Both the position numbers and the translations under genes were made by a program. From Cyanophora paradoxa CCMP329 (lineage: Eukaryota; Plantae; Glaucophyta), in the NCBI GenBank assembly GCA_004431415.1, contig QPMI01000608.1, forward strand, positions 1 through 39,375: 39,375 nucleotides of DNA, read 5' to 3'. Below are positions 1-17,710 of this stretch, piece after piece. Within the stretch, counting starts at the first letter, position 1. Every line of letters begins with the position of its first letter. The notes under the pieces were generated by a model. That model made no database searches, had not been told where the DNA came from, and saw nothing but the letters and a program-made list of their open reading frames with translations.

Positions 1-481
1 ATTCAAAGAAGACTTTATCAGAGATTCAATAATAATTCAGAGAGAAGCCAGAAGCTGGTCAAAAGAAAGCTGACCCAACTCTGTTCACACTTCTACACAA
101 TGATGATGAGTATAAGATGGCTCACATGAAGATATTACTGGATATGTGGAAGAACAAAGAGGTTGAAGAGATCTTAAGGTCCCCCTCAATCGATTATTGA
201 ACAGGGAATTAACTTTATAGCTGAAAATGATAAGATTGGTGAATGGCTTAGATAATTTCGAGGTTACATAATGCAAACGACTTTGTTTCCAGTGATATCA
301 TTTACAAATCATACAAAAGTGTTGATGATAAAGTTGAATGTGTATCTGTATGAAAAGAGTAAGGGAGATCTTCAATGTTAAATCAGAAAGAAAACGAGTT
401 ATGGTATTCTTGCCAGAGGATATATTGGATTCGAAAGATAACAAGGGTTCAGAAGACAATGAAGATGATGCCGAATATTAA
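1..481 (+). CDS. C-terminal part of a D5-like (SF3) primase-helicase, frameshifted and 5'-truncated by the window
   Basis: Manual translation across frames gives IQRRL (Arg-finger-like), EAGQKKADPTL..YKMAHMKILLD, FIAENDKIGEWL, NDFVSSDIIYKSYK and RGYIGF, ending at TAA 479-481. This is the usual order of helicase tail plus winged-helix in D5 proteins. It is missing from the ORF track because of several indels. Confidence 0.7.
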
Positions 482-535
482 ACAAACGATTATGATTGAG
501 ATTTACATATATTTTATAGCCTTACTGAAATGTTT

Positions 536-635
536 GTGTGACAGGTGTGACAGGTCCATCCCAAGGAAAGCCCTGGTGAAAAAGTTGATTTCAAAATCGA
601 TGGGATAGACCTGTCACACCTGTCACACCTGTCAC
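536..635. repeat. Palindrome of 9-bp iterons (GTGTGACAG)n, candidate replication origin
   Basis: Arms 536-563 and 601-628 are 28-bp inverted repeats with 1 mismatch, plus a partial extra unit at 629-635. The same motif family recurs at 16790-17174. Confidence 0.9.
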
Positions 636-750
636 TATCGAAAAAGACCAAAATTTGACAAGAATACTTAAGGCTTACTTGATTGTGTATAGTGAAGACA
701 AAATGGCAAAACTCTTGATGAGATGACCATGACTGAGTTAGATAAATGCA

Positions 751-1471
751 TTAAGCATGGAGATATTGGAGCATATATCGAAATGTCACAGAGATTGATA
801 GGTTACAATATGTATGCAGCAAACCAAAGAGAAATAGATCAGTAAATTCACATAACTGTTTCAGTGTCTGAGAATGCAAACAAAAAAACAAAAGCATATT
901 TACAAAAGTTATCTGTGACTTGATTGCAAGTATAAAGCCAATTCCTTTGTATATATTTTTAGCTGCCTCAGTGGCATACTGAGACCGCTTTTTCTCAATT
1001 ATCTTATAGACCTGGGGGTCCATTGCTACTATCAGTGGCAAATAATATTTAATCGGTCTCCCTCTGGGTCTCTGCTCCTCTTTTTGGGCTTTTCTGCGAT
1101 AATAGGAACATGCTTGTTGTTCTTATACTCTCTATATTCTGGGTCCTCTCTATATCGTTTCTGCTTTGCTAGAATGTGTCTAATAGCACCCTCAGTTAAA
1201 GGCTCATCACTGGTAAACTCGATTAAACTAATTGTATCCTCCATTAATATTTGCAGAGAAAACGTTTTCACCAGAAAGAACTTCTCCTTGGATACTCCTG
1301 TTGCTCATATGTATACTCTGTGGGGTCTGCTGGCATTGACTCCACAGAAACTGTTGATCTCCTTCTCTCTCTTGCTTCTGAGGCATTATCCTCATTATCT
1401 GACATCTCAAACTCCATTGTTGTCTCACAGCATCCACTGTGGCAATTGCTCACCACATGCAGACTGAACAT
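751..1471 (-). CDS. Hypothetical viral protein(s), probably one gene split by frameshifts
   Basis: Three abutting or overlapping minus-strand ORFs (1268-1471, 1032-1271, 751-1041) with charged, protein-like composition. No recognisable motif, and the ends are uncertain. Confidence 0.4.
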
Positions 1472-1565
1472 CTCAAAACTTTCGTATTATATCCATGTCT
1501 CTAATAAAACAGAGAAAATTAAAGCCAAACTCGTCTTTTATATACTGTTGGGGCTACTCCCTTTT

Positions 1566-2244
1566 CTACTTCAGCTTTGGTGGCACCAGGTTCAATGGTT
1601 CCCTTTGGGTCTTTGTTTTCATTTCATCTACTGCCTGCTCATCGATTTGGTTCTCTTTCTTAGCAATAAACTGTTTATCTGGGACACCAGTGATACCCAT
1701 TTTGAATACTTCCTTTCGAAGCATCTCCTTTAGCTTGGCTCTCTCTTTCTTCTCAGTAACATACTGCTCCAAGGCACTTGATTTGGCTTCCAGATCTTTG
1801 AGTTTAGCAGTCATCTCATCCCATTGAGCTTTGGGAATTCGATGAATATTTTGAGTGGGAGCAGTCTTATATGTGACTTCACCAGCCATAGACTGGATTA
1901 CCTTGTCTGATTCCTTACTAAGACCTTCACCTTTGCGAGCCAGTGAAAGATCTTGCAAGCCTAAACCTTTATCATCAGCAGCACCAATAATTCGCCTGGC
2001 ACCCTCAGCAACAGCTTTCATTTTGAGGCTTCTGGTGAGATGTTGAGTTGGTCAGCAGTTGAAGCTGTGGGGCTTTGTCATCGACTGATTCCTCATAGGC
2101 AGCATTGAGGGGTCTTCTTGTTGTGAGGGCTTTATCATTCATACCATTGAATTTCATTGGTTCAGTGTTAATGGATCCATTGTTTCCACCACCTGAATAG
2201 CCAACAGCCCCAGCTGGGATCCCTATTTTTCGTTTGGGAGGCAT
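1566..2244 (-). CDS. Hypothetical basic/coiled-coil viral protein, frameshifted near 2010-2065
   Basis: ORFs 2005-2244 (starts MPPKRK, NLS-like) and 1566-2021 overlap and join if indels are allowed. TAATAAAG lies just upstream of the ATG. Confidence 0.55.
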
Positions 2245-2272
2245 TGTATCTTTATTAGAATGAGAGATAATT

Positions 2273-3022
2273 TTATAAACCGCGTTTATATCGCATCAAT
2301 TTATTGCTATGGACTTGGCTTTTCACTTCTTTGGGGGCTTCCTCTTTCTCTGGTGGTTTCAGTTCATCTTCTTTCTTTTTTGGCTTCCTGTGGAAGCGAG
2401 GAAAATCGAAATCTCCAACTAAATCGGCTTTATCGACATAGTATTTAACTTAGTAGTTTGCAGAGGACCAAACGATATGATAGGAGTGAACATACTCTTC
2501 AAACATTTGTAGAAATCCTCTTTTTTCGCATTATATTGTATTCTTCCTCTATGGCTTCAAGTTCTTTTGCGATTAGCAGCACAAAACATAATCATAATTC
2601 AGAATTACACTTGAACTTTCGAATTTCTGAGAGATAGATAATGGATATTTTCGAATGGCGCCTCTGGAATACAAGATCCATTTTTATCTCCTGAGATCGA
2701 CTTCATTTCTATCATTAAATCATCTAAAACACCACATATGGTTAAGGTTCACCCTTTTCTCTTTCTCTCTCTTAAATTTGCAATGTAAGGGATCCCATGC
2801 ACCCAGTTGAACTGTAGCAGCTTTGTCCCAAAAATGTGAAAATGAGGTAGCGGATATAATAAGTGTTGTATCAATCTTTTTGGCATCATGCAGCTGTTTC
2901 AAATAATATTTTACAGCTTCAGTCTTCCCACATCCTGATTTCCCAAGTATGAGTAGTCGGAAAGGGGGTTCTATCATTTCACCAGCCACAAATTCCTCCA
3001 GTTCAGAACTTGGTATAGGCAT
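2273..3022 (-). CDS. A32/FtsK-HerA-type genome packaging ATPase, frameshifted
   Basis: Walker A LILGKSGCGKT is in the listed ORF. In other frames downstream are Walker B (VLDDL, about 2735-2720), MDLVFQRRHSKISII (the family's RH motif), SQKF...NYDYVL and a charged tail ending at TAA 2275-2273. Total about 250 codons, adjacent to the capsid gene. Confidence 0.85.
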
Positions 3023-3081
3023 TGTTGTAGATCTTCCTAAATAAAGACAGATAAAAATAATGCTGGGAGACTGAAAATGGT

Positions 3082-4452
3082 CTATAAATTGATTCTACGA
3101 AGACCTGAACCGTCCACAATGAGGAAACTATGCATGAGAGCGCGAACATTAACATCGATTACCTTATCTGAAGGCATGTAGAGGGTGAGGAAGGAAGAAG
3201 AGGAATTTGTTAAATCAACATAACCAGACTGGGCAATATTTCGAATTGCCTTTTCTCCATCAAGGCAGAATGGGAGTCCTGAAAGGACATAGCGATCAGC
3301 AACCTTATCCATGTTAGAGCATTTGAAGGCATCAGCAATTAGCTCAGCACCTTTGAGTAGGGAAATTGGCTCAGTGGCATAAAGTCGCTGTCCATTAATT
3401 TCAACAGTGAAAGTAATATCTTTGGAGTTGGCATAGGTCTTAAGAACACTGTGGGAGCCAGTGGATTTATCAACAGTTGCATTATCACGAACTGAAACAA
3501 GCAGAGCATAAACAAGACCTGAGATTTGAGAGAGGTTAATTCGATTGGGTTGGGCATTGCCCTTGGCAGGGAAAGCACTAGCATCTACAAATCCAATATC
3601 AAGGGAGGGAATAGCCATGCCAGTAGTCTTTACTTTTTCAATAACAGTAGCGAAAAGCTCATCAGAAACATTAATAGCATGCATGTAAAGGCGAGGAGAA
3701 GTAATAGAAATAACAGGAGTTGTTGCACCAAGACTGAAAGTGGTGATGTTTTGACCAACATGGGCAAGTGTAGCATTAGCAGTATCACCAAGACCATCAT
3801 CTTCTGTCTTATCAGCAACTGTCCCACCAACAACAGGGAGAGAGCGACCACCATAGGAAGTTTCAACATAACCCTTCTCAGCATCCTTAAACCAAACAGT
3901 AACAACCATTTCACCAGATAAAGCACCAAGGGGAAGATAATGATTGAGCCAAGGCACAGGGATTTCAACGAAAAATGAGCCACCAAGTCGGTTGGTTCCA
4001 TGAGCAGGGATACCATGAACCATGCCCATTGATCGCTTCTTTTTAGCTAGTTGATCCTCCGAATAATAGACCAGGGGGAAATGAGCAAGGAAATCAGATG
4101 GAATATGGTAGGTGTAAGATCCATAGGTAATTTCAAGTCGCTGAACTAAAGCACCAACTGGGCGAGTGTATCCATTGCGAACTAGGTCAGTATCACCAGC
4201 AAACGTGATGGCTGGAAGGTCGAAAGCAAGTTCGAGTTTTCCACAGAAATTGTAGCGAGGTAGCTTGAAGGAAATGCGATTTCCAACATTATTCTCAAAA
4301 GTATTGCTGGGATTCACAACAACTAGAACTGGCTTAGACTTAGATTCGAGACCAAGCATAAGGGAGTTATCCAGGAAAAAGGCTTTCGCCTCCTCTGGGG
4401 TTGTTAGGGCTTCTTTCAGCGAAAGTCTTTGAAGAGTGGAAGTGATATCCAT
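3082..4452 (-). CDS. Double jelly-roll major capsid protein (456 aa from the likely ATG at 4452)
   Basis: Intact beta-rich ORF between the ATPase and penton genes. Motifs GNRISFKLPR..GKLELAFDLP, ALVQRLEITYG, FFVEIPVPW..YLPLGAL..EMVVTVWFK and VEINGQ parallel NCLDV-type capsid motifs. ATAAAAG precedes the ATG at 4452. Confidence 0.85.
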   Translation of the reverse strand: MDITSTLQRLSLKEALTTPEEAKAFFLDNSLMLGLESKSKPVLVVVNPSNTFENNVGNRISFKLPRYNFCGKLELAFDLPAITFAGDTDLVRNGYTRPVGALVQRLEITYGSYTYHIPSDFLAHFPLVYYSEDQLAKKKRSMGMVHGIPAHGTNRLGGSFFVEIPVPWLNHYLPLGALSGEMVVTVWFKDAEKGYVETSYGGRSLPVVGGTVADKTEDDGLGDTANATLAHVGQNITTFSLGATTPVISITSPRLYMHAINVSDELFATVIEKVKTTGMAIPSLDIGFVDASAFPAKGNAQPNRINLSQISGLVYALLVSVRDNATVDKSTGSHSVLKTYANSKDITFTVEINGQRLYATEPISLLKGAELIADAFKCSNMDKVADRYVLSGLPFCLDGEKAIRNIAQSGYVDLTNSSSSFLTLYMPSDKVIDVNVRALMHSFLIVDGSGLRRINL

Positions 4453-4505
4453 TATATTCTCTTTTATTATACTGCAACATAAAAAATCTACCAATGATCC
4501 TTAAT

Positions 4506-5513
4506 TTATGCGAAGCTTGTAATAACTGGATAGGAAGGGTGAAGCTGCGACATTCTCATCTTAAAGTATTCATAAACTGGGTCCCCAGCTGGCTCATCAC
4601 CATAGCGAATTTCAAAGGTCAGATGAACAGGTTGACCCTCGAAATCAATTGGTTCATTTACAGCATTTACAATATCAACCGAGAAAGTGGATAATCCAAC
4701 CTTTTTATTATAATATTTGTAAAGTGGGTGAGCCTCTGTTGAATTATAAACTACATGCTCTCCATAGTCTTTATCAGGGACCACTATTTTATGGAAGTAA
4801 CCAGTCAGGAGACCATCCCCACATTGCACCAGATCACCCAGCTCCTTTACCCTCACAAACAAAACACTGTCCCTTGTCTTTTCAGGCTCAAAAGAAGATA
4901 TAATGCCATTCACTCGACCACCAGTAAAAATTCCATCAGTGAGAGCATCATAGACCTGTGATTGGATTGGGAGTTACCATATCTTCCAGGATCAAGACCC
5001 AGCAGTCTAGCTGAACTCAACAGCTTTTGGATTGTTTGTTGGCTTGGGTTCACAGCTACTGAGAAAGCCAAGTAAAATGGTACTGCTGAGTGGAATATAA
5101 TTCGTTTCAGTGATTCATCCCATTTGCAGCGAATGGATGGTTGGGGATTCTGCCTTCGAATTTAGAGTTAATTACATTCACCAGTTGCTGGTGGCTTTGG
5201 ATGGGGTGTTTCGACTTATAATGAATTGTTTCCATTGTTCATAGTCAGCAGCTGGGCGAACTGTTGGAATTCCTGAGCTTCCAGCTCCAGGAGTTTGTTC
5301 AGAATAATAAATGCTAAATGCATTGTCAACTGTCACATCTCCTGCTTTGGTTTCACCACTCACCATAGGGATACTGTTATAAAATTCGGCTGAGACCAGT
5401 CTCACAGCCCTCACATTCTCATAACTACTGGGGAGTCTAGCCACAAAGCTTGAAGTGGGACCATCACCAGAGATTGTATTAAATGAGCTAACCTCGATGT
5501 AATCCACAGGCAT
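4506..5513 (-). CDS. Minor capsid (penton-like, single jelly-roll) protein 1, frameshifted
   Basis: N-terminal SSFVARLPSSYENVRAVRLVSAEFYNS, middle SARLLGL (in an unlisted frame, about 5030-5000) and C-terminal LFVRVKEL...FSVDIVNAVNEPIDFEGQPVHLTFEI align by eye with the intact paralogue at 5543-6475. At least three indels are needed. Confidence 0.78.
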
Positions 5514-5542
5514 TCTTCTTTTATCTATATTCATATATTAAA

Positions 5543-6475
5543 ATGAACCGGCTCGTTAATATTGATAGCAGGGATAGAAGCCAAGGACAAAATGAAAACT
5601 CTTACAGGGTCACCCTCACAACTCCAGTAGAGAGACCAAGGGAATGCAGGGTTCTATATGCAGAGATTCCAAACAGCATCTATAACAGTGTGGGAACTGA
5701 TCATCTAACAGTTCAGTTTAATTACCAAGATGGTTCATATAACCAAGTGATCACACAACAAGTGTATCCCCTTCCCAGTGGCTACATCAATCAGGGTCAT
5801 TTTGGGGTAACACACCCTTATAATTATGGGCTGAACTATTCAAGCTTCCAAACCATTGCAGATAAAACTGTGTTTTTTGAGTTCAAGATATTCTACAATC
5901 CAACTACCTATAAAGTGGAGTTTTACAGTAACCATGAGTTTCGTTTTATTGCAAGCAACCAGAGAATAGGAAAGCTTTTGGGTGTAAGTTCTACTGAATA
6001 CACCACTGGGTATTATAGCACTCCTCCTGTTGGTGGATCTCCATATCGACCTGAGAACCTTTTAAAGTATGATGGTAAACCTATTACACCTGATCACCCA
6101 GCATGGGGAATCACCTTCTCAGGACCCAGACTCTCCTCAAAGCCCTTGCAGTATTATTTTGACAGCAGGAAGATGTCTGATATGAATGCTGAGCAGTATC
6201 TGTACATGCATATTAAAGAGCTAGCCCCCTTTGCCAGCAGACACAATATAATTCCGAAATCGCAACCACATAACCAGGGGGCTATCCTTAGATTACAATT
6301 GAGTAAGGATATAGGTGGCTATGTTTACCATAGTGGTGAGCATGCAGAATTCATTCAGATAAATGACAGAAACCTGGTGATAAGGGAACTCACAGTTGAG
6401 TTTAAAGATTACTTTGGTGAACTGATTGATATGAATGGAATCGATAATTCTTTTCAGTTGGAGTTTATCGAATAA
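5543..6475 (+). CDS. Minor capsid (penton-like) protein 2, 310 aa
   Basis: LVNIDSRDR start, VLYAEIPNSIYN, IGKLLG, YLYMHIKEL and ELTVEFKDYFGELIDMNGIDNSFQLEF are typical of minor capsid proteins of PLVs and NCLDVs. Confidence 0.85.
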   Translation: MNRLVNIDSRDRSQGQNENSYRVTLTTPVERPRECRVLYAEIPNSIYNSVGTDHLTVQFNYQDGSYNQVITQQVYPLPSGYINQGHFGVTHPYNYGLNYSSFQTIADKTVFFEFKIFYNPTTYKVEFYSNHEFRFIASNQRIGKLLGVSSTEYTTGYYSTPPVGGSPYRPENLLKYDGKPITPDHPAWGITFSGPRLSSKPLQYYFDSRKMSDMNAEQYLYMHIKELAPFASRHNIIPKSQPHNQGAILRLQLSKDIGGYVYHSGEHAEFIQINDRNLVIRELTVEFKDYFGELIDMNGIDNSFQLEFIE

Positions 6476-8021
6476 AGGCACCTGTAAAGTCAACTCTCAT
6501 TGTGGGAGCATTCACATACACAAGGGGATAAATGCGAATATATTTAATTCTGAGAGAAAAACCTATGTAAAAAGCATCCTTGATGCTGAGAGGAAATCCA
6601 CTCAATAGAGCCACATCACCTGAGTTGTGAGCATTGTTAATGTTCTCACAGACATATATTTTGTTTTGCCCATCTGATCGAATAAAAGACCAGTTGATCC
6701 CATCAGTGGATGTTGCCACATTGAAAGTCTTAATAAAAGCATTGGTGTCCCCTGATCCATAGGCAATCACAGAAGAGAGTTCAAAAGTATATGGGAAAGC
6801 AACTTGAAGGTATTCAGTGGGGGTTTCCCATATCTGCTCAGGAGCATAGGCTCCAGCTTCCCAGCCAAATGCTGAAGGTCTAGCCATGAAAGGCTCTTTA
6901 CCAGTCACAGAGGATGAGGCAGTGAAGGCATCATCTGCAAGCTGATACCAATTAGCATCCAAAGGTGGTGATGTAGTGAGAGTGGATGAAATGTAAGCCT
7001 TTGAAGGGTTCTTTAGTTCATAGTTTGCTACTAGTAGGCTGCAAAGCTTATTGATCATATCATTGTTTGCTGCAATGTAGGTTTCTGTGAAAGAAAGCAT
7101 ATCTGGGATTTTAGAAGTGTCATCAAGGGAGCTAACTATATGGTTTGGAAGAGGGACCGATAGCCTATAGTATCTCCCATAATCCTGATCATAGTTGTAG
7201 GGTAAAAGCTCCTCCATTTTATCAAGGGCAGAAAGCTCACTTGCAGCCATGAGCATGTTAATCAATGGGCTTCCATCTGTTGAGGCAATCCATGAGAGAA
7301 TGCCCCAGCTGTTTACAGTCTCATAAGCATAACCCACATAATCAGACTCTAAATGTGGGTCCACCTCACCACAAGAGATGCTTATTACTATAATGTCATC
7401 ATCATCACTGTAAATCTTCTTTGCATGGCTGTAACCACACACACTGGGATTATTGTTTCCCGAAATGGCACCATCAATGAGACAGACATATACTCCCCTA
7501 TTGAAATCAACAATGCTTACAGGAGAGAAATATGTAGGAGCAGCAGAAGTAGCCCTAGCAGCAATCTTACAAGGCATAAAGTTGTAATTGTTGTCATTTG
7601 TGATAAATATTGGTTTCATATTCTGAGTATCAAAGGATGTGATCACAATGTCCTTAAGGGAATCCTGTATTAGTGATTCACCAGTAACTGAATTGATTGC
7701 AGTCTCCAAGGGTCCCACATCATACTTTGTGTTAAATAGGGCATTTTCAATGATATTTCGAGGATTTGCGAAAATCAAGGGCAGTTGAGTTAGGTAAATA
7801 TTGTGTAAATCGTTTGCTGTCAGTTTAGGTTCACCTGGTTTATCAGGATGCCTGATGTTTAACCCAATAGCAATGATCCCACCAGTGGAAGTTCCACTCA
7901 CAAGATCCACAAGATCGATTATTCTCCTGCCAGTTCGATTTTCGATTTCTTTGAGCAGCCTGGTTATGATAATGCCCCTTGCACCCCCGCCAGAAAGACT
8001 TAAAACGACCTTGAGAGGCAT
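6465..8021 (-). CDS. Patatin-like phospholipase fused to a C-terminal discoidin (F5/8 type C) domain, 518 aa
   Basis: GGGARG oxyanion motif, GTSTG nucleophile elbow, SAAPTYF and DGA catalytic Asp. The C-terminal FTASSS..W..EYLQV..KTFNVATSTDGINW..KYIRIYP..MRVDF fits the discoidin pattern. Confidence 0.92.
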   Translation of the reverse strand: MPLKVVLSLSGGGARGIIITRLLKEIENRTGRRIIDLVDLVSGTSTGGIIAIGLNIRHPDKPGEPKLTANDLHNIYLTQLPLIFANPRNIIENALFNTKYDVGPLETAINSVTGESLIQDSLKDIVITSFDTQNMKPIFITNDNNYNFMPCKIAARATSAAPTYFSPVSIVDFNRGVYVCLIDGAISGNNNPSVCGYSHAKKIYSDDDDIIVISISCGEVDPHLESDYVGYAYETVNSWGILSWIASTDGSPLINMLMAASELSALDKMEELLPYNYDQDYGRYYRLSVPLPNHIVSSLDDTSKIPDMLSFTETYIAANNDMINKLCSLLVANYELKNPSKAYISSTLTTSPPLDANWYQLADDAFTASSSVTGKEPFMARPSAFGWEAGAYAPEQIWETPTEYLQVAFPYTFELSSVIAYGSGDTNAFIKTFNVATSTDGINWSFIRSDGQNKIYVCENINNAHNSGDVALLSGFPLSIKDAFYIGFSLRIKYIRIYPLVYVNAPTMRVDFTGAFIR

Positions 8022-8064
8022 CTTTTACTTATCAGGAATTTTATAAATCCCTATAGTAAAAGCC
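8022..8064. promoter_or_regulatory. Compact bidirectional promoter/initiator with inverted AGTAAAAG motifs
   Basis: CTTTTACT (8022-8029) and AGTAAAAG (8055-8062) are exact reverse complements, each 0-2 nt from a divergent ATG. Related (A/G)TAAAAG motifs precede other viral starts. Confidence 0.6.
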
Positions 8065-11000
8065 ATGAGCTTCAATTACCCACCCAATCTAGAAACCATT
8101 CAAGATGATAATGCAAGCAGCACCAAGCATGTGAACTTTGATAATATTAAAGTAAAGGGTTCAGTTTCAATTGACCACAGCTCTGATAATTCATCAAAGA
8201 CTCAATCAAGGGAGCATGCTTTATCTGTGAATCAAACCGATCCAGATAAAGAGGATGTCAGTGTTGCTTTTAGTTTGGGTAATGTGAAAGCAAACCAAGT
8301 GGCAGAGATCAAAGCCACCAGAAGGAGACCTAGGAAACTGAAAACCAGTGGCACTCACCCAGATATACCTTCCAGGTTCGATAGTGGTCGATTGATTTTC
8401 AATGTTCAAGATGAGCAGGGCAAACAGAACACAGCTTTACGAATTTACAATGAGGGCAGCACTGCAAAAGCTGAGGTCCCCCAAGTATTGCAAGTGGGTC
8501 CCATTGCCAATACAAATCAGGTCTCCTACACAAATGATGTCTACCCCAAGGATATTACATATGACTTTGCAAGAAATGAGCCTTTTGGGTTCTTTACTCC
8601 AAAAGATGTCCATCAAAAAAAGCCATCAATTACAATCAACAGTAGCCCCAGTCAACCAGTAGCAATCCATTTGCATCCTGATTTAGTCGAAATGGATAGG
8701 CACCTTTTGCCTTTGTATAGCAATGTGAAAGACCTTGGAATTCGAACCAGGCAATGGCGAAATATCCATGGCAGTAATGTGTATGCAAATGGTGAGAAGC
8801 TTGTTAGTGAGAAAACCCTAAGAGAAATCATTGAGCATTATGGTCCCAATGGACCTACTGTCCCATTCCCTATTCCATTTCCCAATGGACCACCCGATTT
8901 AACACCAAAGAAGCAGCCTGGAAGAGAATACACAGCAACTGAAGATGTAGCCTTTGGGCAGCATATTGTTAGTTGGGAGCAAGTTCGCAATAAACCTATA
9001 ATTGAACCCAGAAAGCAAATAGATGAGCAGTATTTACCTCCTGAAGTCGATATATTAGAGCTTGATGAATATCAATTCGTTCCAGATGAGGAAGAATATT
9101 TACCAGATGGTTTTGACCCACAAGAATATGAATATGATCAGTTTGACCCCAATGAGGAGGAAATATTGCCCGATGGCTTAGATCCACAAGAGTTTGAGTA
9201 TGAGCAGAACTATGAACCTGATGAGGAGTATTTACCAGATGGTCATGATCCACCAGCTGTTGACTATGAGCAACCTTATGAACCCCATGAGGAATTGTTA
9301 CCAGATGGATTTCGACCTGAGATCTGGGAGTTCTTTCCTGATTATGAACAAATTAATAATAAACCTGCAAAGTATCCCCCAGAGGATCACAATCATGATT
9401 GGGATGAGATCTTAGGCAAACCTCAGAAGTATCCACCAGAGGATCACAGGCATGATTGGGGTGAAATTGATGGGATACCTGCTGAGTTTCCACCAAGCAA
9501 ACATGAACACACTTGGGATGAGATCAATGACCAACCAGAATTCGCAAAGGTGGAGCCTCTTGATAACTTGGGGGTTTCTCTTTACCAGACTTGTAATGTC
9601 CCTGAAAGGATTTTTTTGAACGAACACTATGTTCATGTGAATGGGACACTTGCAAATTCAGCTATGAGAGGACCACTTCATATTAGGACATTACCAGGCT
9701 CTTTTGAAACCCCACCTGAACCAGGAGCAACCATACCAAATATCTTTGTGTCAAGCTACATGGAGGCTGACATTCCCACAGATACATTCAGAGTCCCAAC
9801 AGACCCAGCAACCTACCAAAATTACAACGCTGCTATACAGGTTCATGTAGCAGATGTAAGCAGTTTAGATGGCTCAAGACCAATGATAGTATTCAGCAGA
9901 GATAAATATTCTTACATTCCCATAGTGGGAACTGCAAATGATAATTATGGGAGGGCAGAGCTTGCATGGATTAAAACAGATTATGGTGGGGTTCTGGAAG
10001 CCAATCAGAGGATGGCTGCAAAAAACATACACAATGAAAATATTTCGAGAGTGGTCACAGAGGATTACCTTACTGCTGTTGTTCTTGTGAATATAGTCAC
10101 CCTTGCTATGCTTGCAAATTATGTAACGAAAAATGAACTTGCTCTTGAATTATCAAAGTATCTTCTCAAAACAGGTGGGACAATCACAGGGGACCTTACT
10201 GTTACCAGTAACCTTTACACAAGTAACCTTTATGCAAGCAATATAACGGTCGATTTTCTTACTGTTACATCTAATGCAAACCTCCCACATCATCCAACTT
10301 CAAATGTTGTGGAAGGGTGGATCAGAAACCATACTCACACCAAAGACCAAATTTTAGACTTTGATCACACACATGCCTGGTCAAATATTGTGGACAAACC
10401 ATTGACTTTTCCCCCAGATGATCACACCCATGCCTGGTCAAATATTTTCGACAGGCCCCTAACCTTCCCTCCTGATATTCACACTCATGATTATACCCAG
10501 ATCACCAACTGCAATCACAGACATCCTTGGAATGAAATAGATGAACAACCAGTGTTTGCACAATTAAATGCAATCGGAAATGTTTTTAATGGAGTCACAC
10601 TTTACCAATCGAGTAATACACCTGAAAGATTGTATTTGAATGATCATTATGTTAGTCTCAATGGGACTTTTACAGGTCAAACAGGCACTCCAATGGAGGG
10701 AACTCTTGCAGTAAGATTACCCAGGGATCCAATCGTAAATGGAGTTTATGATGGTGATTTTAATGTAGGAGTAAATGATACTTTCCCCAGTATCTATGTT
10801 ACAAATTATCACCCAGGTGAAACAGGACAAGTAGCCGATTTTTCAGCAGCTATTCAAATAAACGTTACAGATCAAAGCGCATATGATGGAGCAAGACCTA
10901 AAATAGTATTCACAAGGGAGAAAGTTGTAAACTATCTTCCCGTTGCGGGACAACCCACAGATGATCACGGTAAATGTGAGATGGCGTGGATAAAAACAAC

Positions 11001-13530
11001 ATCAGGTGGCGCCTTAGAAGTCAATCAGAGGATGGCGGCGAAAAACTTACACAATACAACCCTTTCAGGTGTCGTTACAGATGATTACCTAACCAATAAA
11101 GGATATCTTACGACCGCGGATTTAAGCAGTTACACAACGGATGCAGAATTAACAACGGCTCTTGCGAATTATTTACCTCTTACAGGTGGGACAGTTAATG
11201 GAACTGTAAACGCTACTAGTCTACAAATTGGTGGAAACACAATTCCAAAAGGATATGATTTCGATCAATTAGATGTAGTATCAACAGATAGAAGCGCAAA
11301 TAATTGGAATTTGAATTGGTCACCAAGAACAGGACAAACAGGATGTTATACTACACCAGCAAATGATGAAGATTGCAGCGGTTGTTGGATGCGTTGGACA
11401 ATTCCAGAAGGTATGAAATCATTTTATATTCAGCATATGCCTTGGTATAATGGCAGATATTTTGATATCTATGGTCAGACTCTCAATAACAATCAGCATT
11501 TCTTAAAACGTGTAAACGATTATCAAGGAATACAGTCAGTAAATCATGATGGGACAAATAATACTATCTTGTTTGTATCAATTAATTGCGAGTTTTACAA
11601 GTATATTTATGTTCAAGGGCGAATAGGTCGCATTCATCTTACAGGGGTTTTCGGTTGGAGCAGACAGAGGGCAACAGATAATGATGTTGGTTTAGTTCAT
11701 TATGATAATATTGCTTTCAAACCAGATGTAGGCAAATATACAGAGTTTGATGTTGTGAGTGGTTACAATAGCGCAGGTGTTGAATTTGTAGGGTCTTGGG
11801 ACACGAATTGGAAACCTACATCAGATAACCCGGTTGCAGGATTTTACAGCATTGTAACTGATGATGAAACCAGCGGTGACTATATGCAGATCTTAGTTCC
11901 AACAGGAATGAAAACTTGTCACGTCCAATATTTCTGTTGGACGAATTGTAGATATTTTGATATAGGAGGTTATCGAAACAATAGATGGAATCACATTATG
12001 AGAGTGAATACTTATCAAAATGCAGGAAATACATATGCAGATTCACTTTGGCATGAAGGTTTAACATGGACTTCATTCTTTTGTGGGAATTTCTCATATA
12101 TTAGATTTGTTGCGAGAAAAGGGCGTTGTCATATTGGAATGCTTGGATGGACAAAAGAGGTAGGAAGAACAGCACCAGCAAATGGTATGATAAGTTGGGA
12201 TAATGTTTATAGCAAACCGTCATTTTATTCAGCCGCAGACCTTCCACAAACAGCGACATGGCCAACAAATACATGGTTAAAATCAACCGACACTGTTCCG
12301 CGAATTTGGTTTGGAAATGGTGATTGCACATATATTCGAGGTTATGGAAATGGTGCTGGTGTTTCAATTGAATTCAGAGACTCAGCAGATGGAGCAATAT
12401 TAAAGTCTTATAACAATGGTAACTTTTGGGTGAAAAACACTATTACAGCACCCACTATTAATGCTACTACCAAACTCCAAATAAATGGTAATGATATCCC
12501 AAAGTTTCACACAGCAGATAAAACAGTAGGAGGTATTGAATTTAATAGATGTTCTTATAACGATTGGGAGTGGGCGTGGAGTTCAGCATGGGATCCATCT
12601 TATAATTATGGTTCTTACGTTTATAATAAGCAATCGGATGATCAAACTTCTACCGCTTGGATTGACTTCGATATTCCAGAAGGATATCACACAGGAACAG
12701 CGTTTTTAACTTATTTACCTTGGGTTAGCTCACGACTTTTTGAAATTTGGGGAGTGAATCGACAAGGAAATGAAGTTTTTATAACATCAGTGAATAGTTA
12801 TCAACCATACTCCACATCTCCTGAAGGTAACCACAGTGGTTTAAATAATGTTCCTATACATCTTGGTAATCGATTCCTCACAATTCGGATTAGACCAAAG
12901 ATTGGAAGAGTTCACATTATGGGTATAAGTTACATGAAAATTTGGGTAGGAAATAGTTATGGTGGTCACACCGGCTATATTCATTGGAATAATGTTTATA
13001 GTAAACCAAATATCTTAACAGGAGCTGTGGAAACTTGGTTTAATTCCAGTGATGGATATAATCGAATTCATTTCGGTAACAATGGTTCTACATATTTGAA
13101 AGGAAGGGGAGATTATCCAATAAGATTTCGAAATGAATTAGATTCTGATATTTGTTGGATCGATCATAACGGGCGGATGTGGATAAACAATTATTTAACA
13201 CAAGGAAGTGACAGAAGATACAAAACAGATATTAAAAAGATAACCGGCGCTCTTTCAGCAATCGAAAAATTAGAAGGAGTGAGTTTTAAACGAATTGGGA
13301 GTGAAAAAGACGGAACAAAATTAGGTTTAATTGCGCAAGATGTAGAAAAGGTAATACCAGAAATTGTAAGTGTCACAAAAGAAGATGGTTACCTTTCTCT
13401 CGAATACACGGGTTTAATTCCAGTTCTCATAGAAGCCGTTAAAGAGTTATCTAAGAAATGCAAAGATTTAACACAAACATGTGAAAATCTCCAAAGTCAA
13501 ATAGATCAAATTAAAAATGTCACAGTATAA
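8065..13530 (+). CDS. Giant fibre / receptor-binding protein with C-terminal intramolecular chaperone (Peptidase_S74), 1821 aa
   Basis: HxHxW..I..KP phage-tail repeats, two YL..TGGT..G.(L/V) shaft motifs and three repeated beta-rich domains. GSDRRYKTDIKKI..AL..IEKLEGVSF..GLIAQDVEKVIPEIV..LEY.GLIPVLIEAVKEL plus a terminal coiled coil. Confidence 0.9.
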   Translation: MSFNYPPNLETIQDDNASSTKHVNFDNIKVKGSVSIDHSSDNSSKTQSREHALSVNQTDPDKEDVSVAFSLGNVKANQVAEIKATRRRPRKLKTSGTHPDIPSRFDSGRLIFNVQDEQGKQNTALRIYNEGSTAKAEVPQVLQVGPIANTNQVSYTNDVYPKDITYDFARNEPFGFFTPKDVHQKKPSITINSSPSQPVAIHLHPDLVEMDRHLLPLYSNVKDLGIRTRQWRNIHGSNVYANGEKLVSEKTLREIIEHYGPNGPTVPFPIPFPNGPPDLTPKKQPGREYTATEDVAFGQHIVSWEQVRNKPIIEPRKQIDEQYLPPEVDILELDEYQFVPDEEEYLPDGFDPQEYEYDQFDPNEEEILPDGLDPQEFEYEQNYEPDEEYLPDGHDPPAVDYEQPYEPHEELLPDGFRPEIWEFFPDYEQINNKPAKYPPEDHNHDWDEILGKPQKYPPEDHRHDWGEIDGIPAEFPPSKHEHTWDEINDQPEFAKVEPLDNLGVSLYQTCNVPERIFLNEHYVHVNGTLANSAMRGPLHIRTLPGSFETPPEPGATIPNIFVSSYMEADIPTDTFRVPTDPATYQNYNAAIQVHVADVSSLDGSRPMIVFSRDKYSYIPIVGTANDNYGRAELAWIKTDYGGVLEANQRMAAKNIHNENISRVVTEDYLTAVVLVNIVTLAMLANYVTKNELALELSKYLLKTGGTITGDLTVTSNLYTSNLYASNITVDFLTVTSNANLPHHPTSNVVEGWIRNHTHTKDQILDFDHTHAWSNIVDKPLTFPPDDHTHAWSNIFDRPLTFPPDIHTHDYTQITNCNHRHPWNEIDEQPVFAQLNAIGNVFNGVTLYQSSNTPERLYLNDHYVSLNGTFTGQTGTPMEGTLAVRLPRDPIVNGVYDGDFNVGVNDTFPSIYVTNYHPGETGQVADFSAAIQINVTDQSAYDGARPKIVFTREKVVNYLPVAGQPTDDHGKCEMAWIKTTSGGALEVNQRMAAKNLHNTTLSGVVTDDYLTNKGYLTTADLSSYTTDAELTTALANYLPLTGGTVNGTVNATSLQIGGNTIPKGYDFDQLDVVSTDRSANNWNLNWSPRTGQTGCYTTPANDEDCSGCWMRWTIPEGMKSFYIQHMPWYNGRYFDIYGQTLNNNQHFLKRVNDYQGIQSVNHDGTNNTILFVSINCEFYKYIYVQGRIGRIHLTGVFGWSRQRATDNDVGLVHYDNIAFKPDVGKYTEFDVVSGYNSAGVEFVGSWDTNWKPTSDNPVAGFYSIVTDDETSGDYMQILVPTGMKTCHVQYFCWTNCRYFDIGGYRNNRWNHIMRVNTYQNAGNTYADSLWHEGLTWTSFFCGNFSYIRFVARKGRCHIGMLGWTKEVGRTAPANGMISWDNVYSKPSFYSAADLPQTATWPTNTWLKSTDTVPRIWFGNGDCTYIRGYGNGAGVSIEFRDSADGAILKSYNNGNFWVKNTITAPTINATTKLQINGNDIPKFHTADKTVGGIEFNRCSYNDWEWAWSSAWDPSYNYGSYVYNKQSDDQTSTAWIDFDIPEGYHTGTAFLTYLPWVSSRLFEIWGVNRQGNEVFITSVNSYQPYSTSPEGNHSGLNNVPIHLGNRFLTIRIRPKIGRVHIMGISYMKIWVGNSYGGHTGYIHWNNVYSKPNILTGAVETWFNSSDGYNRIHFGNNGSTYLKGRGDYPIRFRNELDSDICWIDHNGRMWINNYLTQGSDRRYKTDIKKITGALSAIEKLEGVSFKRIGSEKDGTKLGLIAQDVEKVIPEIVSVTKEDGYLSLEYTGLIPVLIEAVKELSKKCKDLTQTCENLQSQIDQIKNVTV

Positions 13531-13533
13531 TAA

Positions 13534-13842
13534 ATGGCGACCTATCCACTTGGTGGATCTCCTTCTACTACTTCTGAGCCTGTTGCTCTTGCATTCGATA
13601 CTATCAAACTTGTAGCCGCACTACAAAATGTCGAAAAAACGATTCAGCAAACTAACAAGCTCTCACCAGTTGTAAATGAGTATAAAAACCTCTTGGTTAA
13701 TGTCCTTGCTCAAGCTGCATATGGTGACCCTGTTGCTAAATACAATGAGTGTGATAACAACATTAAAGCAATGACATCCAACCTGCAAGTTCTTTCAACT
13801 GTTTACCAATCCCTTGGATCGAATTTAATCACTTTGGCTTGA
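13534..13842 (+). CDS. Hypothetical helical protein, 102 aa
   Basis: Intact ORF starting 3 nt after the fibre stop (TAATAAATG), with amphipathic composition. Confidence 0.7.
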   Translation: MATYPLGGSPSTTSEPVALAFDTIKLVAALQNVEKTIQQTNKLSPVVNEYKNLLVNVLAQAAYGDPVAKYNECDNNIKAMTSNLQVLSTVYQSLGSNLITLA

Positions 13843-13881
13843 TGGTAGTTTATTTTTCTTTCCTTCTTAGTAAAAGAAGCA

Positions 13882-14736
13882 ATGGGTGAATATAATCGAG
13901 TTCAACTGCCTATATATTCCCTTGGATCCCCTGCAATGCATTTTCGCCAGCATGAAGTAAATGATGAGGTTCGTGGTTTAGAATCCACAGAGAGACCCAA
14001 CTCCAATGGCAACTCCTTTGATAAAAATTCGATTATTCGAGTTAAAGAGCTGAGAGCTGATAAGAATTCTGGTGTGGTTAAAACAACTCGACTTCTTGTC
14101 ACAAATGCTAACTTCTTTCAGCCTACTAATGGAGGTCCTGATGCTTACAGTGTTGATCTGAAAGCCCTTGATTATGATAAAAACACTGCTGCTGTAACTG
14201 TGAGATCAGGAGGAGCATTTATTGGTGGTGGCTGCAGAGTTTCAGGTCAGCTATCTTCATCTGTTTCCTACAATGATGTCCCAGATACTCTCGAACAAAA
14301 TGTGGAGAACCCACAACGAATTCGTTTCTACACACCTGTTGCACAGCAACCTTTTTTGCATTTCTATGTTGCATCCTCTGTAACTCTTGAGAATTCGGAA
14401 TTAGTTTCCATTACAGGAACTGATCGAGTAAGAAGAAATATTCCTCTTCCCACTGCAATGCTTTCCATGTGTAGAGCCAATAATAATCAACCAGGACACA
14501 ACTACTTATTCTTTGTTCAAGCTTCGAACCATTTTGGCAGAGGATATTGTGTTTATAACAATTTGACATTTACCTATGATCTGTTTGTCACTGAGGTTGG
14601 AGTATACAATACTATGATTATGGGACTGAGAACAGATATAGCAGCTGTATCAGCACTTCGTGGGGTAAATGTTGCTGATATATTCACAACAGGATTTTAC
14701 CAAGAATTAGATGTAATTGATGACCCAACCCCATAA
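13882..14736 (+). CDS. Putative structural / fibre-like protein, paralogue A (284 aa)
   Basis: Intact ORF preceded by AGTAAAAG. Shares GL.STE, ELR.DKN.G.VKTT.LLVTNANF and SGGA.IG.G.RV.G with the next gene. Confidence 0.75.
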   Translation: MGEYNRVQLPIYSLGSPAMHFRQHEVNDEVRGLESTERPNSNGNSFDKNSIIRVKELRADKNSGVVKTTRLLVTNANFFQPTNGGPDAYSVDLKALDYDKNTAAVTVRSGGAFIGGGCRVSGQLSSSVSYNDVPDTLEQNVENPQRIRFYTPVAQQPFLHFYVASSVTLENSELVSITGTDRVRRNIPLPTAMLSMCRANNNQPGHNYLFFVQASNHFGRGYCVYNNLTFTYDLFVTEVGVYNTMIMGLRTDIAAVSALRGVNVADIFTTGFYQELDVIDDPTP

Positions 14737-14759
14737 AAGATATATCCCTTTAATGTAAA

Positions 14760-15593
14760 ATGGCTGAGCAACCCCCACTTGAACGAATTATTACACCTCA
14801 GCTATCATTAGCTGCACCAGCAAACCATGTTCTGCAGCATGCTACTTTTGATGATGTTGAGGGACTGCAGTCCACAGAGGTCCAACCTACAATGAATACA
14901 TTTGGTTCCACCCACAAGCTGAGATTACAGGAACTCAGATGTGATAAAAATAATGGAATAGTTAAGACAACTAAGCTACTTGTGACAAATGCAAACTTTT
15001 CTGCTCATTATGGAGACCCAGATAGCTATGGAGATCCTCTTTCTACTTATTCTTTTGAATCTAGGTCGGGAGCTATTAACTGCAAATCGGGGGGAGCTTA
15101 TATTGGTGATGGTCTTAGGGTTGGTGGGGCTGTTGGAGCGCCTCTATTTGTGAATGATCAACCCAATCCCATTGATCCCAACACAAGAATTCGAACCTAT
15201 GTCCCCAGCATGAATGCCCCCTATATAATAAAAATATTCCCAATTGTTGTGAATGAACAAACAGCAGTAGTAGACTCTCTTGTTGAGATTGGTGACCACT
15301 ACAAGGTTGTTGTGGATATTCCACCAGATGTATATGCTCTTTGTCAAGTAGAGGGTGGAACTCCTAATTTTGCTGTTGTGATCACCCCATATGATAATTT
15401 TGGAATTGCTTATCATGGAGTCAATTTCGGTTTAGAAGATTACCAGTTCTTAGTGAGAGCCACCAAGTTTGGTATCTACAAGTGTGTATTATATGCTGAG
15501 AGAACCGATTTTATTGCAAGGCAGAATACCTATGCTGAATACTATGGCACAAATCGATATTTCCCCATTTTTGGGCAGGATACTGCTCCATAA
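14760..15593 (+). CDS. Putative structural / fibre-like protein, paralogue B (277 aa)
   Basis: Intact ORF and tandem paralogue of 13882-14736, with a conserved N-terminal half and a diverged C-terminal half. Confidence 0.75.
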   Translation: MAEQPPLERIITPQLSLAAPANHVLQHATFDDVEGLQSTEVQPTMNTFGSTHKLRLQELRCDKNNGIVKTTKLLVTNANFSAHYGDPDSYGDPLSTYSFESRSGAINCKSGGAYIGDGLRVGGAVGAPLFVNDQPNPIDPNTRIRTYVPSMNAPYIIKIFPIVVNEQTAVVDSLVEIGDHYKVVVDIPPDVYALCQVEGGTPNFAVVITPYDNFGIAYHGVNFGLEDYQFLVRATKFGIYKCVLYAERTDFIARQNTYAEYYGTNRYFPIFGQDTAP

Positions 15594-15615
15594 GAATGTT
15601 GATTATATATAGAGT

Positions 15616-15888
15616 ATGGATAGTAAAACAAAAAAGTTTATTGATGCTGCTATGACAGTTCATGGTAAAGATAAATTCGATTACAGTGAGACACATTACA
15701 TCAAAGCTCAAGAGAAAGTATCTGTTAGATGTTTGCAGTGTAACAAGGTGATCCTTACCTATCCCTTTAATCATGTGAAGGGATCAGGTTGTAGGGACTG
15801 TAATAAAAGAAAAAGTCAAGCACATAGGAAAAGGGCTACTTCATCAATTAGAGTAGAGTATAGGGATATTTGCATTAGGTTTGACTAG
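15616..15888 (+). CDS. Small Zn-ribbon protein (DUF723-like), 90 aa
   Basis: FI..A..VHG..FDYS...Y......V.V.C..C......P.NH..G.GC..C pattern, as in repeats associated with viral homing endonucleases. No nuclease domain follows. Confidence 0.7.
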   Translation: MDSKTKKFIDAAMTVHGKDKFDYSETHYIKAQEKVSVRCLQCNKVILTYPFNHVKGSGCRDCNKRKSQAHRKRATSSIRVEYRDICIRFD

Positions 15889-15911
15889 TTAATTTTTCTA
15901 AGGTATTCTTA

Positions 15912-16310
15912 ATGGAGACTAAACACAGAGGCTTTCATGTTATGCTTGATTACAAGGCTAAATCAGCTATAGCAACAGGTTATGAGCATGTGAGCTTCCT
16001 AGGTAATTGGATTATGGGAACCCTTGAACAAGCAATATTGAGACAAGGTATTAGGATTGTTCATAAACACTGTGAGATATTTGATGGCAAACTATCACCT
16101 CCTGGTTTTGCATTGGTTCTGCTATTAGATGAAAGCCATTGTACAGCTCATTGTTATTCCAATGAAGGCATGTTAGCAATTGATATATTCAGTTGTGGTA
16201 AAGAAGCTCAGCATAAAACACAATCAGTAGCAGATGAGATCGATAAAACAATGAATTTCCTCACATTTGAGAAGACTGAGAGACATAAACATGATAGATT
16301 CCCGTTTTGA
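15912..16310 (+). CDS. speD: Prokaryotic-type S-adenosylmethionine decarboxylase proenzyme homologue, 132 aa
   Basis: G.HVMLD at the N-terminus, PPGFALVLLLDESHCTAHCY (E-S-H pyruvoyl self-cleavage site) and AIDIFSCG. Confidence 0.88.
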   Translation: METKHRGFHVMLDYKAKSAIATGYEHVSFLGNWIMGTLEQAILRQGIRIVHKHCEIFDGKLSPPGFALVLLLDESHCTAHCYSNEGMLAIDIFSCGKEAQHKTQSVADEIDKTMNFLTFEKTERHKHDRFPF

Positions 16311-16713
16311 TGGGTTTCTATAATGATAAACAGGGTAATTTACCTTTTTTATTACAATGGCAATCGTTAAAAAAGGATATAATATATCCTTTCCTACAAT
16401 AGCTTTCTACAATGATTTTCTTTCTACAGTAGCTTTTGTTACAATAGAATTCTACTGTATGATGTAGCCAAAATATGAATGCATCCTAAACCTACAAATG
16501 TAAGATTTCGAATACTATTCGATTTCATTACAGTAAAACTCAACATTCCCCTTGATTCCCCCTATTATAATTAAAGTGGACTCAAGGTTGACTCATATTA
16601 ATCGTAAAAGTAGTAAAAGTATATGGATTTTGTTACGAATTCAATGGGAGGGTTGACTAAGTGGGTTGAGTTGACTCAAATTTCACAGGAAATAACAATG
16701 AATCAGAGTATAA

Positions 16714-17182
16714 ATGCATTTTTTGAATCAACTACACCAACTAACACTGAGATTTTACCAATATATGAGGTCCTTACTGAATATGGTTTGTGTGACAGGT
16801 GTGACAGGTCTATCCCAAACTTTTCTATAGCATAAAAATGAACTCTCAAAAGTTTGGGATGGACCTGTCACACCTGTCACACTCGATTATTTCATTTGTT
16901 TATTCAAGTAGAATTACATAGATAAACTTCTTACTTATTGTTACTGAGTTTTTCATTATAAAAGAGATCCTTACTAAATATGGTTTGTGTGACAGGTGTG
17001 ACAGGATGCATTTTGTGAATCAACTACACCAACTAACACTGAGATTTTAACAATATATGAGGTCCTTACTGAATATGGTATGTGTGACAGGTGTGACAGG
17101 TCTATCCCAAACTTTTCTATAACATAAAAATGAACTATCAAAAGTTTGGGATAGACCTGTCACACCTGTCACACCCAATTAT
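16714..17182. repeat. Two ~170-bp direct repeats (period 292 bp), each ending in a 35-bp iteron palindrome, plus a half unit
   Basis: 16714-16882 matches 17006-17174. Stems are 16790-16824/16848-16882 (1 mismatch) and 17082-17116/17140-17174 (perfect), with 23-nt loops. A half unit lies at 16968-17005. Confidence 0.95.
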
Positions 17183-17425
17183 TTCAAAAATCCTAAGGGT
17201 CCCCCCTTAGAATCATTAAAACATGATAAAAACATATAAGTTTCATGTATAATTACGATTGGATTCAATAAGAGATCGATTTGTTTTATTTAACAAATGA
17301 ATCATTTATGGATCTTAATCGAGTTTAGCGATATATTTCCGATTAAATGAATTAAATTTAATTAAATTTAATCGAGAAAGTACATGAATATAATATCGAT
17401 TAAATCAATTAACAAACAGACCAAT

Positions 17426-17710
17426 CACACATAGTAAAATGCGGAGTTTTAACCAGAGGCAAGATCTAATTGAGATTCAGTTATATTATTCGGAAATATA
17501 TACAGATTATCGATAGACTCAGTAAGACTAATCGGAAAATAAGAGAAATTTACGATAAAATATCGAAAAGAATACAAAATAAACGAAATAAATGAATATT
17601 CGATAAGATATACACAGATTAACGATTGATTGAAATAGAATATACGAGATATATCAACAAAATCAATTAAGATAAGCCGAGGGTTAAAACTCCGCATTTT
17701 ACTATGTGTG
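17426..17710. repeat. Perfect 29-bp inverted repeat marking the element terminus
   Basis: CACACATAGTAAAATGCGGAGTTTTAACC (17426-17454) and its exact reverse complement (17682-17710), with a 227-bp AT-rich spacer. Host-like DNA begins at 17711. Confidence 0.95.

Follow-up and report, generated by a model that had tools for sequence, protein, structure and literature searches.

A stretch of 39,375 nucleotides from the glaucophyte Cyanophora paradoxa CCMP329 (assembly GCA_004431415.1, contig QPMI01000608.1, positions 1 to 39,375 of the forward strand; hereafter, the window) contains at its left end an AT-rich island. We judge this island probably to be the right part of an integrated polinton-like virus (PLV) of the helicase type, likely one of dozens of Cyanophora copies, which is likely silenced by host CpG methylation and would form its own double-jelly-roll (DJR) virions on reactivation. 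Among the features that support this assignment and can be observed directly are the island itself, its junction with host DNA, genes for a capsid protein, a lipase, a fibre and a decarboxylase, the motifs of a packaging ATPase, and a high relative depth in sequencing reads. Its layout corresponds to the reduced PLV module, described in the literature, of the major capsid protein (MCP), the ATPase and pentons together with a helicase-type replication gene (PMC11161782). The element is real and probably represents a copy of the intact type; its PLV family has been catalogued in print but neither named nor placed.

The island and its morphogenetic genes

At position 17710 the GC content steps from 0.388 (1-17710) to 0.721 beyond, with a transition of at most 50 bases, and the observed/expected ratio of CpG is 0.38 within the island versus 1.13 outside. 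The open reading frames (ORFs) of the island are long and uninterrupted, those of the MCP, the second candidate penton, the patatin and a 5.5-kb fibre being intact, and coding density calculated from our own gene spans is about 96% over 1-16310. These properties bear out the preliminary description of this DNA, made from its letters, as an AT-rich, intronless island with the compact, PLV-like layout of an integrated small DJR virus. Among 18 ORFs searched with Pfam, three have matches above the curated cut-off, and these correspond to the patatin-discoidin, S74-chaperone fibre and AdoMetDC genes that had been named in that description; an ATPase piece and penton 2 match below the cut-off, and the MCP has no match. 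A search for tRNAs found none. The element is at least 17.7 kb in size and has one sharp end, whereas its left end lies outside the window; PLV genomes in the broad sense measure about 14-40 kb and have terminal repeats at their boundaries.

The MCP gene (3082-4452, minus strand) encodes an intact protein of 456 amino acids that is 60% identical over its full length to P0001, a C. paradoxa protein whose identity as an MCP has been confirmed by HHpred in print. Its language-model features in the ESM Atlas agree with those of Capsid_N/Capsid_NCLDV clusters (0.98, with 217 of 256 shared), at a recognition value below the 2300 mark. Together, these two results corroborate the proposed DJR capsid. 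Only two relatives, P0001 (61%) and P0002 (37%), were recovered among 1.84 billion representatives. Both P0001 and a still closer MCP are listed as confirmed endogenous MCPs in Table S2 of Bellas et al. (2023; PMC10120064), and among the matches listed the closer one is identical at 67 of the first 80 residues, as counted by eye. The identity of the window's MCP to a member of the Cyanophora MMPC21/29 elements exceeds the membership threshold of 25%, and Table S4 of the same study records 366 MCP hits in C. paradoxa, which fall into clusters 21 and 29 and are assigned to no named group of viruses (PMC10120064). The AlphaFold model is of low confidence (pLDDT 36), and its fold searches, which are led by DJR capsids, provide leads only. 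Sequence searches of the PDB and of phage records returned no significant match to the MCP, and Pfam detected nothing in any of three MCPs. The MCP belongs in no named group.

Adjoining the MCP gene is a region (2450-3022, minus strand) in which the motifs of a packaging ATPase occur in order but are distributed over three frames in the assembly: Walker A at 2944-2921, a Walker-B-like VLDD from 2730 and RHS from 2660. A Pox_A32 match to this gene is sub-threshold (E 0.0011). The order of the motifs, the weak Pox_A32 match and the position beside the MCP are those expected of the A32-like packaging ATPase of PLVs, so that the ATPase of the preliminary description survives in its motifs, although its frames are broken and its profile match falls short of significance. 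A scan for ATPase relatives yielded three loci with Walker A only, which were discarded, and a protein search yielded none.

The two pentons and the D5 helicase of the preliminary description fare less well. Candidate penton 1 (4510-5534, minus strand) is broken by several indels, and it is called a penton only tentatively, from a likeness of motifs, its ORF at 5178-5534 having no Pfam match. Candidate penton 2 (5543-6475, plus strand; 310 amino acids) is intact and matches DUF5901 below the cut-off (E 0.0036); its fold model has a pLDDT of 35, and the fold search serves as a lead only. At the left edge, 1-520 (plus strand) probably encodes the C-terminal part of a primase-helicase of superfamily 3 (SF3), D5-like in type, whose gene is cut by the start of the window and frameshifted into pieces in three frames. 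This assignment, too, is presumed from motifs, and searches with the region gave no informative Pfam, PHROG or phage match.

The gene content also bears on whether the island could be a piece of a giant virus or mriyavirus that became endogenous, which we consider very unlikely. Giant-virus insertions have been reported in C. paradoxa (PMC12344493), and the MCP weakly resembles capsids of nucleocytoplasmic large DNA viruses (NCLDVs). Against this stand the compact arrangement of MCP, ATPase and pentons and a sharp terminus that is common to many copies. In addition, VLTF2, VLTF3, RuvC and HUH have no Pfam match among the 18 ORFs of the right-hand part covered by the window, and mriyaviruses are described as having genomes of 35-45 kb without integration genes.

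Host junction, copy number and probable assembly errors

Sequencing runs that contain the stretch or part of it number 20, of which 17 hold at least half its words, and four were compared; no RNA run is listed among them. The full-depth runs, which date from 2012, 2019 and 2024, all carry the element-host junction (17710/17711). In X1, X2 and X3 a short-read contig spanning 17681/17682-18172 crosses 17710 without a gap or a differing letter, at depths of 36.4, 44.4 and 100.3, respectively, equal to the depth of the flank. The short-read contigs thus support the junction, and misassembly of a free or contaminating virus with host DNA is extremely unlikely. The junction contigs do hold only 30 or 29 letters of the element, which is below the 31-letter rule for a bridge, and the evidence consists of short reads. 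However, such an overlap is normal where an assembly with 31-letter words meets the end of a repeat, and it presumably arises because many copies end there and branch into different flanks.

Copy number was approached through the depth of single contigs relative to that of the junction contig. Five conserved stretches of the element show 17-65 times the depth of the junction contig, and stretches of the fibre show 7-13 times; these single-contig ratios are rough and their summed depth is not a copy number, so that the figure of dozens of copies is itself a rough inference. A copy-specific, AT-rich contig of the fibre (11589-11958) has only 1.1-1.8 times the junction depth, and GC bias is therefore small. 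Thus, the element is likely to be one of dozens of copies, among which the short-read contigs reveal more than 600 variant sites. Scattered pieces 90-99% alike, including 17305-17709, were also seen at a depth of 2-4 in run X18, which is labelled as another organism; they may be copies of a related host or contamination, and we count this run neither for nor against the interpretation.

The same contigs speak to the broken genes. At 34 (in X2), 2020 and 2064 (X3) and 2523 (X2 and X3), all of the covering depth carries a base that is missing from the window, which indicates assembly errors, and at 5147 and 5202 a missing base is carried by part of the covering depth. Frameshift artefacts of this kind have been reported by Bellas et al. 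(2023; PMC10120064). These observations help in weighing the possibility, which we regard as unlikely, that the family makes no more particles, that it multiplied within the genome like a large transposon or through segmental duplications, and that the present copy is a decaying relic. Such a history would be in keeping with the frameshifts in the helicase, ATPase and penton 1, with the strong CpG loss and the variant sites between copies, and with the failure to find a free relative. Yet the bases restored at the four fully covered positions are what assembly errors would be expected to leave behind, and both the unbroken entry genes and a fibre tip that differs from copy to copy suit selection on infection.

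Candidate origin and right terminal region

A repeat search revealed an iteron-like repeat at 497-629, in which two tandem GTGTGACAG units face two inverted ones. The 9-mer GTGTGACAG occurs 14 times in the window, always inside the island, where 0.08 copies are expected and none of 100 shuffles gave such a count. One set of tandem pairs facing inverted pairs lies at the helicase end (536-628); the right terminal region has two more such sets and an additional half copy, and the repeat region at the helicase end is 75% like 16748-16882. This arrangement recalls the iteron origins bound by the primase-helicases of phages and plasmids, and by analogy the repeat is a candidate replication origin. 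We found no published record of an iteron-like repeat in the context of a polinton primase-helicase, and the GTGTGACAG pattern was absent from the viral contigs scanned.

Beyond the last gene lies a non-coding right terminal region (16311-17710), which is likely to be a terminal inverted repeat whose partner would be at the left end of the element, outside the window. Within it, a block of 181 nt carrying the iteron-like pairs is duplicated (16714-16894 and 17006-17186), and inverted arms of 48 nt (17426-17473 and 17663-17710) close a CpG-rich, AT-rich end. The fold of this inverted pair has a z-score of -10.4, and none of 100 shuffles was as stable. The defined inverted repeat at which the island had been said to end is thus present as a 48-nt pair, but it is a local structure with arms 189 nt apart and is seen at the right end only. 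Over the last 510 bases (17201-17710) the CpG observed/expected ratio is 2.1, with 19 sites mostly in AT-rich context, compared with 0.13-0.62 in the genes. This CpG-retaining segment may be a protected, protein-binding end. Three further proposals for the terminus were set aside: a period of 10.2 bases among the CpGs of the end fell short of significance (p 0.08), a separate miniature inverted-repeat transposable element in the 285-nt end unit was rejected for want of a flanking target duplication, and a hairpin telomere was rejected as the centre is not palindromic.

Entry and accessory genes

A patatin phospholipase is fused to an F5/8 discoidin domain at 6465-8021 (minus strand; Pfam E 1.4e-20 and 2.1e-6, respectively). 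The patatin motifs GGGARG, GTSTG and DGA are intact, and sequence matches in the PDB are to patatin and CapV and to the discoidin domains of factor VIII and lactadherin, which are lipid-binding. With its catalytic motifs preserved and a discoidin of lipid-binding type, the product is likely to be a membrane-tethered lipase.

The adjacent gene (8065-13530, plus strand) encodes a fibre of 1821 amino acids with a C-terminal Peptidase_S74 chaperone domain (Pfam E 1.2e-15). A block of about 310 amino acids is duplicated in this protein (residues 427-736 and 772-1073) and is accompanied by three related distal modules of about 150 amino acids each; Pfam detected nothing in any of five fibre sub-regions. 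The CpG observed/expected ratio is 0.78 in the distal versus 0.25 in the proximal part. The distal portion of the gene (11001-13530) is also rarer among copies, and the short-read contigs indicate that other copies skip parts of it and carry 39 extra bases at 11129. The rarity and CpG richness of this part suggest that the receptor-binding tip has recently been exchanged. Tandem repeats of 66 and 57 bases at 8950-9530 encode acidic and His/Trp-containing peptide repeats.

Downstream of an unannotated 102-amino-acid ORF (13534-13842, plus strand; from the ORF list and Pfam scan), two paralogous ORFs of 284 and 277 amino acids (13882-15593, plus strand; 33% identical) match unnamed viral clusters in the ESM Atlas at 0.93-0.94, below the recognition mark, and possibly encode short virion appendages. 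They are followed by a zinc-finger-like ORF of 90 amino acids (15616-15888, plus strand) that matches parts of HNH-type endonucleases in PHROGs (E 3e-8 to 3e-9) and in which no nuclease domain was seen. The last gene (15912-16310, plus strand) encodes a decarboxylase of the SpeD/AdoMetDC fold with an ESH motif (AdoMet_dc E 5.2e-11), beside which the window contains no spermidine synthase. Homologues of this enzyme can instead decarboxylate ornithine or arginine (PMC10407285). At the other end of the element, small unannotated ORFs occupy 751-2449 (minus strand), some of them split by single-base deletions at which the short-read contigs supply the missing bases; profile searches found no family above cut-off among them.

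Two features of the host DNA were recorded in passing. A large inverted duplication (25629-28273 and 29027-31672), whose gapped alignment of 2.4 kb gives 74.6% identity and includes stretches at 97-99%, looks like a pair of opposite-facing paralogous genes, and a gene at 35900-38900, frameshifted in the assembly, encodes long alanine/glutamate-rich, coiled-coil-like repeats.

Published family and proposed life cycle

The preliminary description regarded the accessory genes as a set not recognised from described elements. However, patatin-discoidin, S74 and AdoMetDC genes are already tabulated for glaucophyte PLVs by Bulzu et al. (2025; PMC12220804), and the MCP family appears in Table S2 of Bellas et al. 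(2023), so that the gene set is not undescribed. Table S6 of Bulzu et al. covers 156 glaucophyte PLV elements with both Cyanophora MCP clusters pooled, and lists AdoMetDC in 66, lipase in 89, S74 in 37, D5_N in 40 (about a quarter), a pPolB domain in 49 and the retroviral-type integrase rve in 85, whereas tyrosine recombinase and protease are each recorded in none (PMC12220804). The PLV-type ATPase model matches 107 of these elements, the NCLDV-type model one, the penton model 97 and the virophage MCP model none (PMC12220804). According to the same study, PLVs of glaucophytes and rhizarians carry discoidin domains, either by themselves or in fusion with patatin, S74 fibres are widespread in PLVs, and AdoMetDC occurs in cryptophyte PLVs as well (PMC12220804). 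Adintovirus-like proteins were noted in C. paradoxa contigs by Starrett et al. (2021; PMC8502044). Taken on their own, the relatives of the element point to Cyanophora or a close glaucophyte as the host. We found no dedicated description of the Cyanophora family in the literature beyond Bellas et al. (2023), Bulzu et al. (2025) and the other works cited here.

These data are compatible with the following life cycle. A retroviral-type integrase encoded on the missing left part would integrate the element, generating a short target duplication around its terminal inverted repeats; this step is proposed because rve is present in the family table (Bulzu et al., 2025). Long residence under CpG methylation would then erode CpGs. 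In C. paradoxa, CpG methylation stands at 32% and is enriched on virus-derived genes (Sarre et al., 2025; PMC12344493), and it is this methylation, together with the CpG loss of the island, that leads us to propose silencing. On activation, probably with a co-infecting giant virus, the primase-SF3 helicase would load onto the iteron-like repeats, and the genome would be copied by a polymerase of the host or the helper; dependence on a helper is probable by likeness to Gezel-14T and Tsv-S. The A32 ATPase would fill MCP shells closed by pentons, with no maturation protease involved, and none of the cysteine type was seen among the 18 ORFs. Trimeric fibres folded by the S74 domain would bind the cell through exchangeable tips, the discoidin-tethered patatin would breach a membrane, and the SpeD-fold enzyme would raise the polyamine supply.

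Several points weigh against the interpretation of the island as an integrated, reactivatable PLV, in addition to the roughness of the depth ratios. It is drawn from sequence, and the virion, the excised form and the helper virus are predictions. The helicase and penton labels, which lack significant matches, are weakly held. The 17.7-kb right-hand part contains neither an integrase nor a polymerase, and the mode of integration is accordingly taken from the family. Polinton/PLV MCP models match just two of the 156 glaucophyte elements (PMC12220804), and the pooled Table S6 does not place the genes together in one element. Finally, word-based scans of limited reach, made with the MCP, its alignment, the penton, AdoMetDC and the repeat pattern, found no relatives in IMG/VR, and a similar word-based scan found none in JGI metagenomes.

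Placement of the capsid

The preliminary description held that the capsid motifs look closer to those of NCLDVs. For comparison, we used 52 NCLDV MCPs from IMG/VR (330-620 amino acids, from 146 matched stretches) and nine MCPs of prasinophyte PLVs. The latter came from a motif scan that found nothing in viral contigs and 63 loci in metagenomes, 42 of them with the motif in frame, from which nine full-length, less redundant proteins were kept; the metagenome contigs with prasinophyte-type PLV capsid genes used in this way are L151-L211. On the PLV side, the comparison thus covers this one group. An alignment of three MCPs compared by hhalign with the NCLDV set gave a global match of 354 columns (E 2.3e-4, hhalign probability 20%), versus E 0.027-0.041 with the prasinophyte-PLV set; the PLV set compared with the NCLDV set gave E 0.17-0.19, and reversed controls gave E 0.028-0.49. 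When the NCLDV set was subsampled to matched depth, five of six subsamples scored 27-40, compared with 14-20 for controls. Among the neighbouring ESM Atlas clusters, Capsid_N/Capsid_NCLDV annotations are borne by 12-18% of members in the top two and 85-89% in the third.

Other results point the opposite way. Against a hidden Markov model (HMM) built from the 52 NCLDV MCPs, all three MCPs score at or below 0 bits, as do shuffles. Hence NCLDV capsid profiles, which characterise Mriyaviricetes and Nucleocytoviricota, do not detect the MCP, and the signal is confined to weak profile-profile similarity; MCPs of the VC40 group match NCLDV models at 3e-25 (10.64898/2026.06.19.733378). The best Foldseek match is an adintovirus capsid (E 4e-9), although with a model pLDDT of 36 it is only a lead. 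NCLDV proteins as best HHpred hits were rejected as a sign of affinity, such hits being generic: they occur in 11 of the first 13 listed rows of Table S2 of Bellas et al. (2023), including ordinary PLVs. The NCLDV leaning of the capsid is thus weakly favoured by hhalign and the ESM Atlas neighbours but not by Pfam, the HMM, HHpred or the fold search. Overall, the MCP appears weakly nearer to NCLDV capsids than to one PLV group, while a low-confidence fold search favours adintoviruses.

The same mechanism could belong to a family from the part of the PLV continuum that is related to NCLDVs (Zora/VC102, VC134, VC218, Zephyr, VC40, GKS2 and mriyaviruses) or to a deep branch of its own there, a question of placement to which we give a minority share of belief. 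The hhalign and ESM Atlas results, together with the failure of polinton/PLV MCP models on all but two glaucophyte elements (Bulzu et al., 2025), would fit such a position; the weakness of every score, the Pfam, HMM, HHpred and Foldseek results and the preponderance of PLV-type over NCLDV-type ATPase matches (107 versus 1; Bulzu et al., 2025) would not. More doubtful still is the fuller proposal that the Cyanophora elements form a deep lineage without a name in that part of the continuum, endogenous and high-copy, with an iteron-type origin served by its own D5-like primase-helicase and with swapped fibre tips. The idea of a new lineage between PLVs and mriyaviruses, raised in the preliminary description, is in any case already in print for Zora, Zephyr, VC40 and GKS2.

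As a discovery, the integrated PLV described here is modest, in that its family and gene set sit in two published supplements. It does provide a culturable glaucophyte with many near-intact PLV copies whose capsid fits no named group, a placement that existing profiles could settle. Reactivation, origin function and fibre-tip exchange are all testable in a single host whose methylome is known. Were the deep lineage on the NCLDV side real, small relatives of giant viruses, now known mostly from metagenomes, could be studied in the laboratory with Cyanophora as host.

Comparison with known elements

The closest known systems are the Cyanophora MMPC21/MMPC29 PLVs (PMC10120064, PMC12220804), which share with the window's element the MCP family, A32 ATPase, candidate pentons, patatin-discoidin, S74 fibre and AdoMetDC, a probable D5-type helicase (in a subset of the published elements), no protease match and a high copy number. 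The present copy differs in being cut on the left, and its iteron-like repeat and variable fibre tip are not seen in the available text of the published accounts. PLV-sized groups with NCLDV-like capsid modules are described in a preprint by Bellas and Sommaruga (2026; 10.64898/2026.06.19.733378), the main text of which does not mention Cyanophora, although its supplements may place the clusters. These groups (Zora/VC102, VC134, VC218, Zephyr, VC40 and Alpensee/GKS2) resemble the window's element in their PLV-sized genomes, optional SF3 helicase, lipase and possibly an NCLDV-leaning MCP. In contrast to them, the window has no HUH or VLTF3 match and its MCP is undetected by NCLDV models; Zephyr, moreover, has no known endogenous member.

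With Mriyaviricetes (Yutin et al., 2024; PMC11253617) the element has in common a DJR MCP, a packaging ATPase and a likely SF3 helicase, whereas their genomes of 35-45 kb, their HUH, VLTF2, VLTF3 and RuvC genes and their lack of an integrase set them apart, none of these markers being seen in the 17.7 kb. Polintoviricetes (polintons, adintoviruses and gosseviruses) share rve at the level of the family, the common occurrence of a lipase and the top fold match of the capsid, to an adintovirus. In contrast to them, no cysteine protease was seen among the 18 ORFs searched or in any of the 156 glaucophyte elements, and the window has no pPolB. Aquintoviricetes (Gezel-14T/PgVV and TsV) share a reduced morphogenetic module without protease, a helicase-type replication gene and phage-like S74 fibres; their MCP models, however, miss 154 of the 156 glaucophyte elements, which use rve rather than a tyrosine recombinase.

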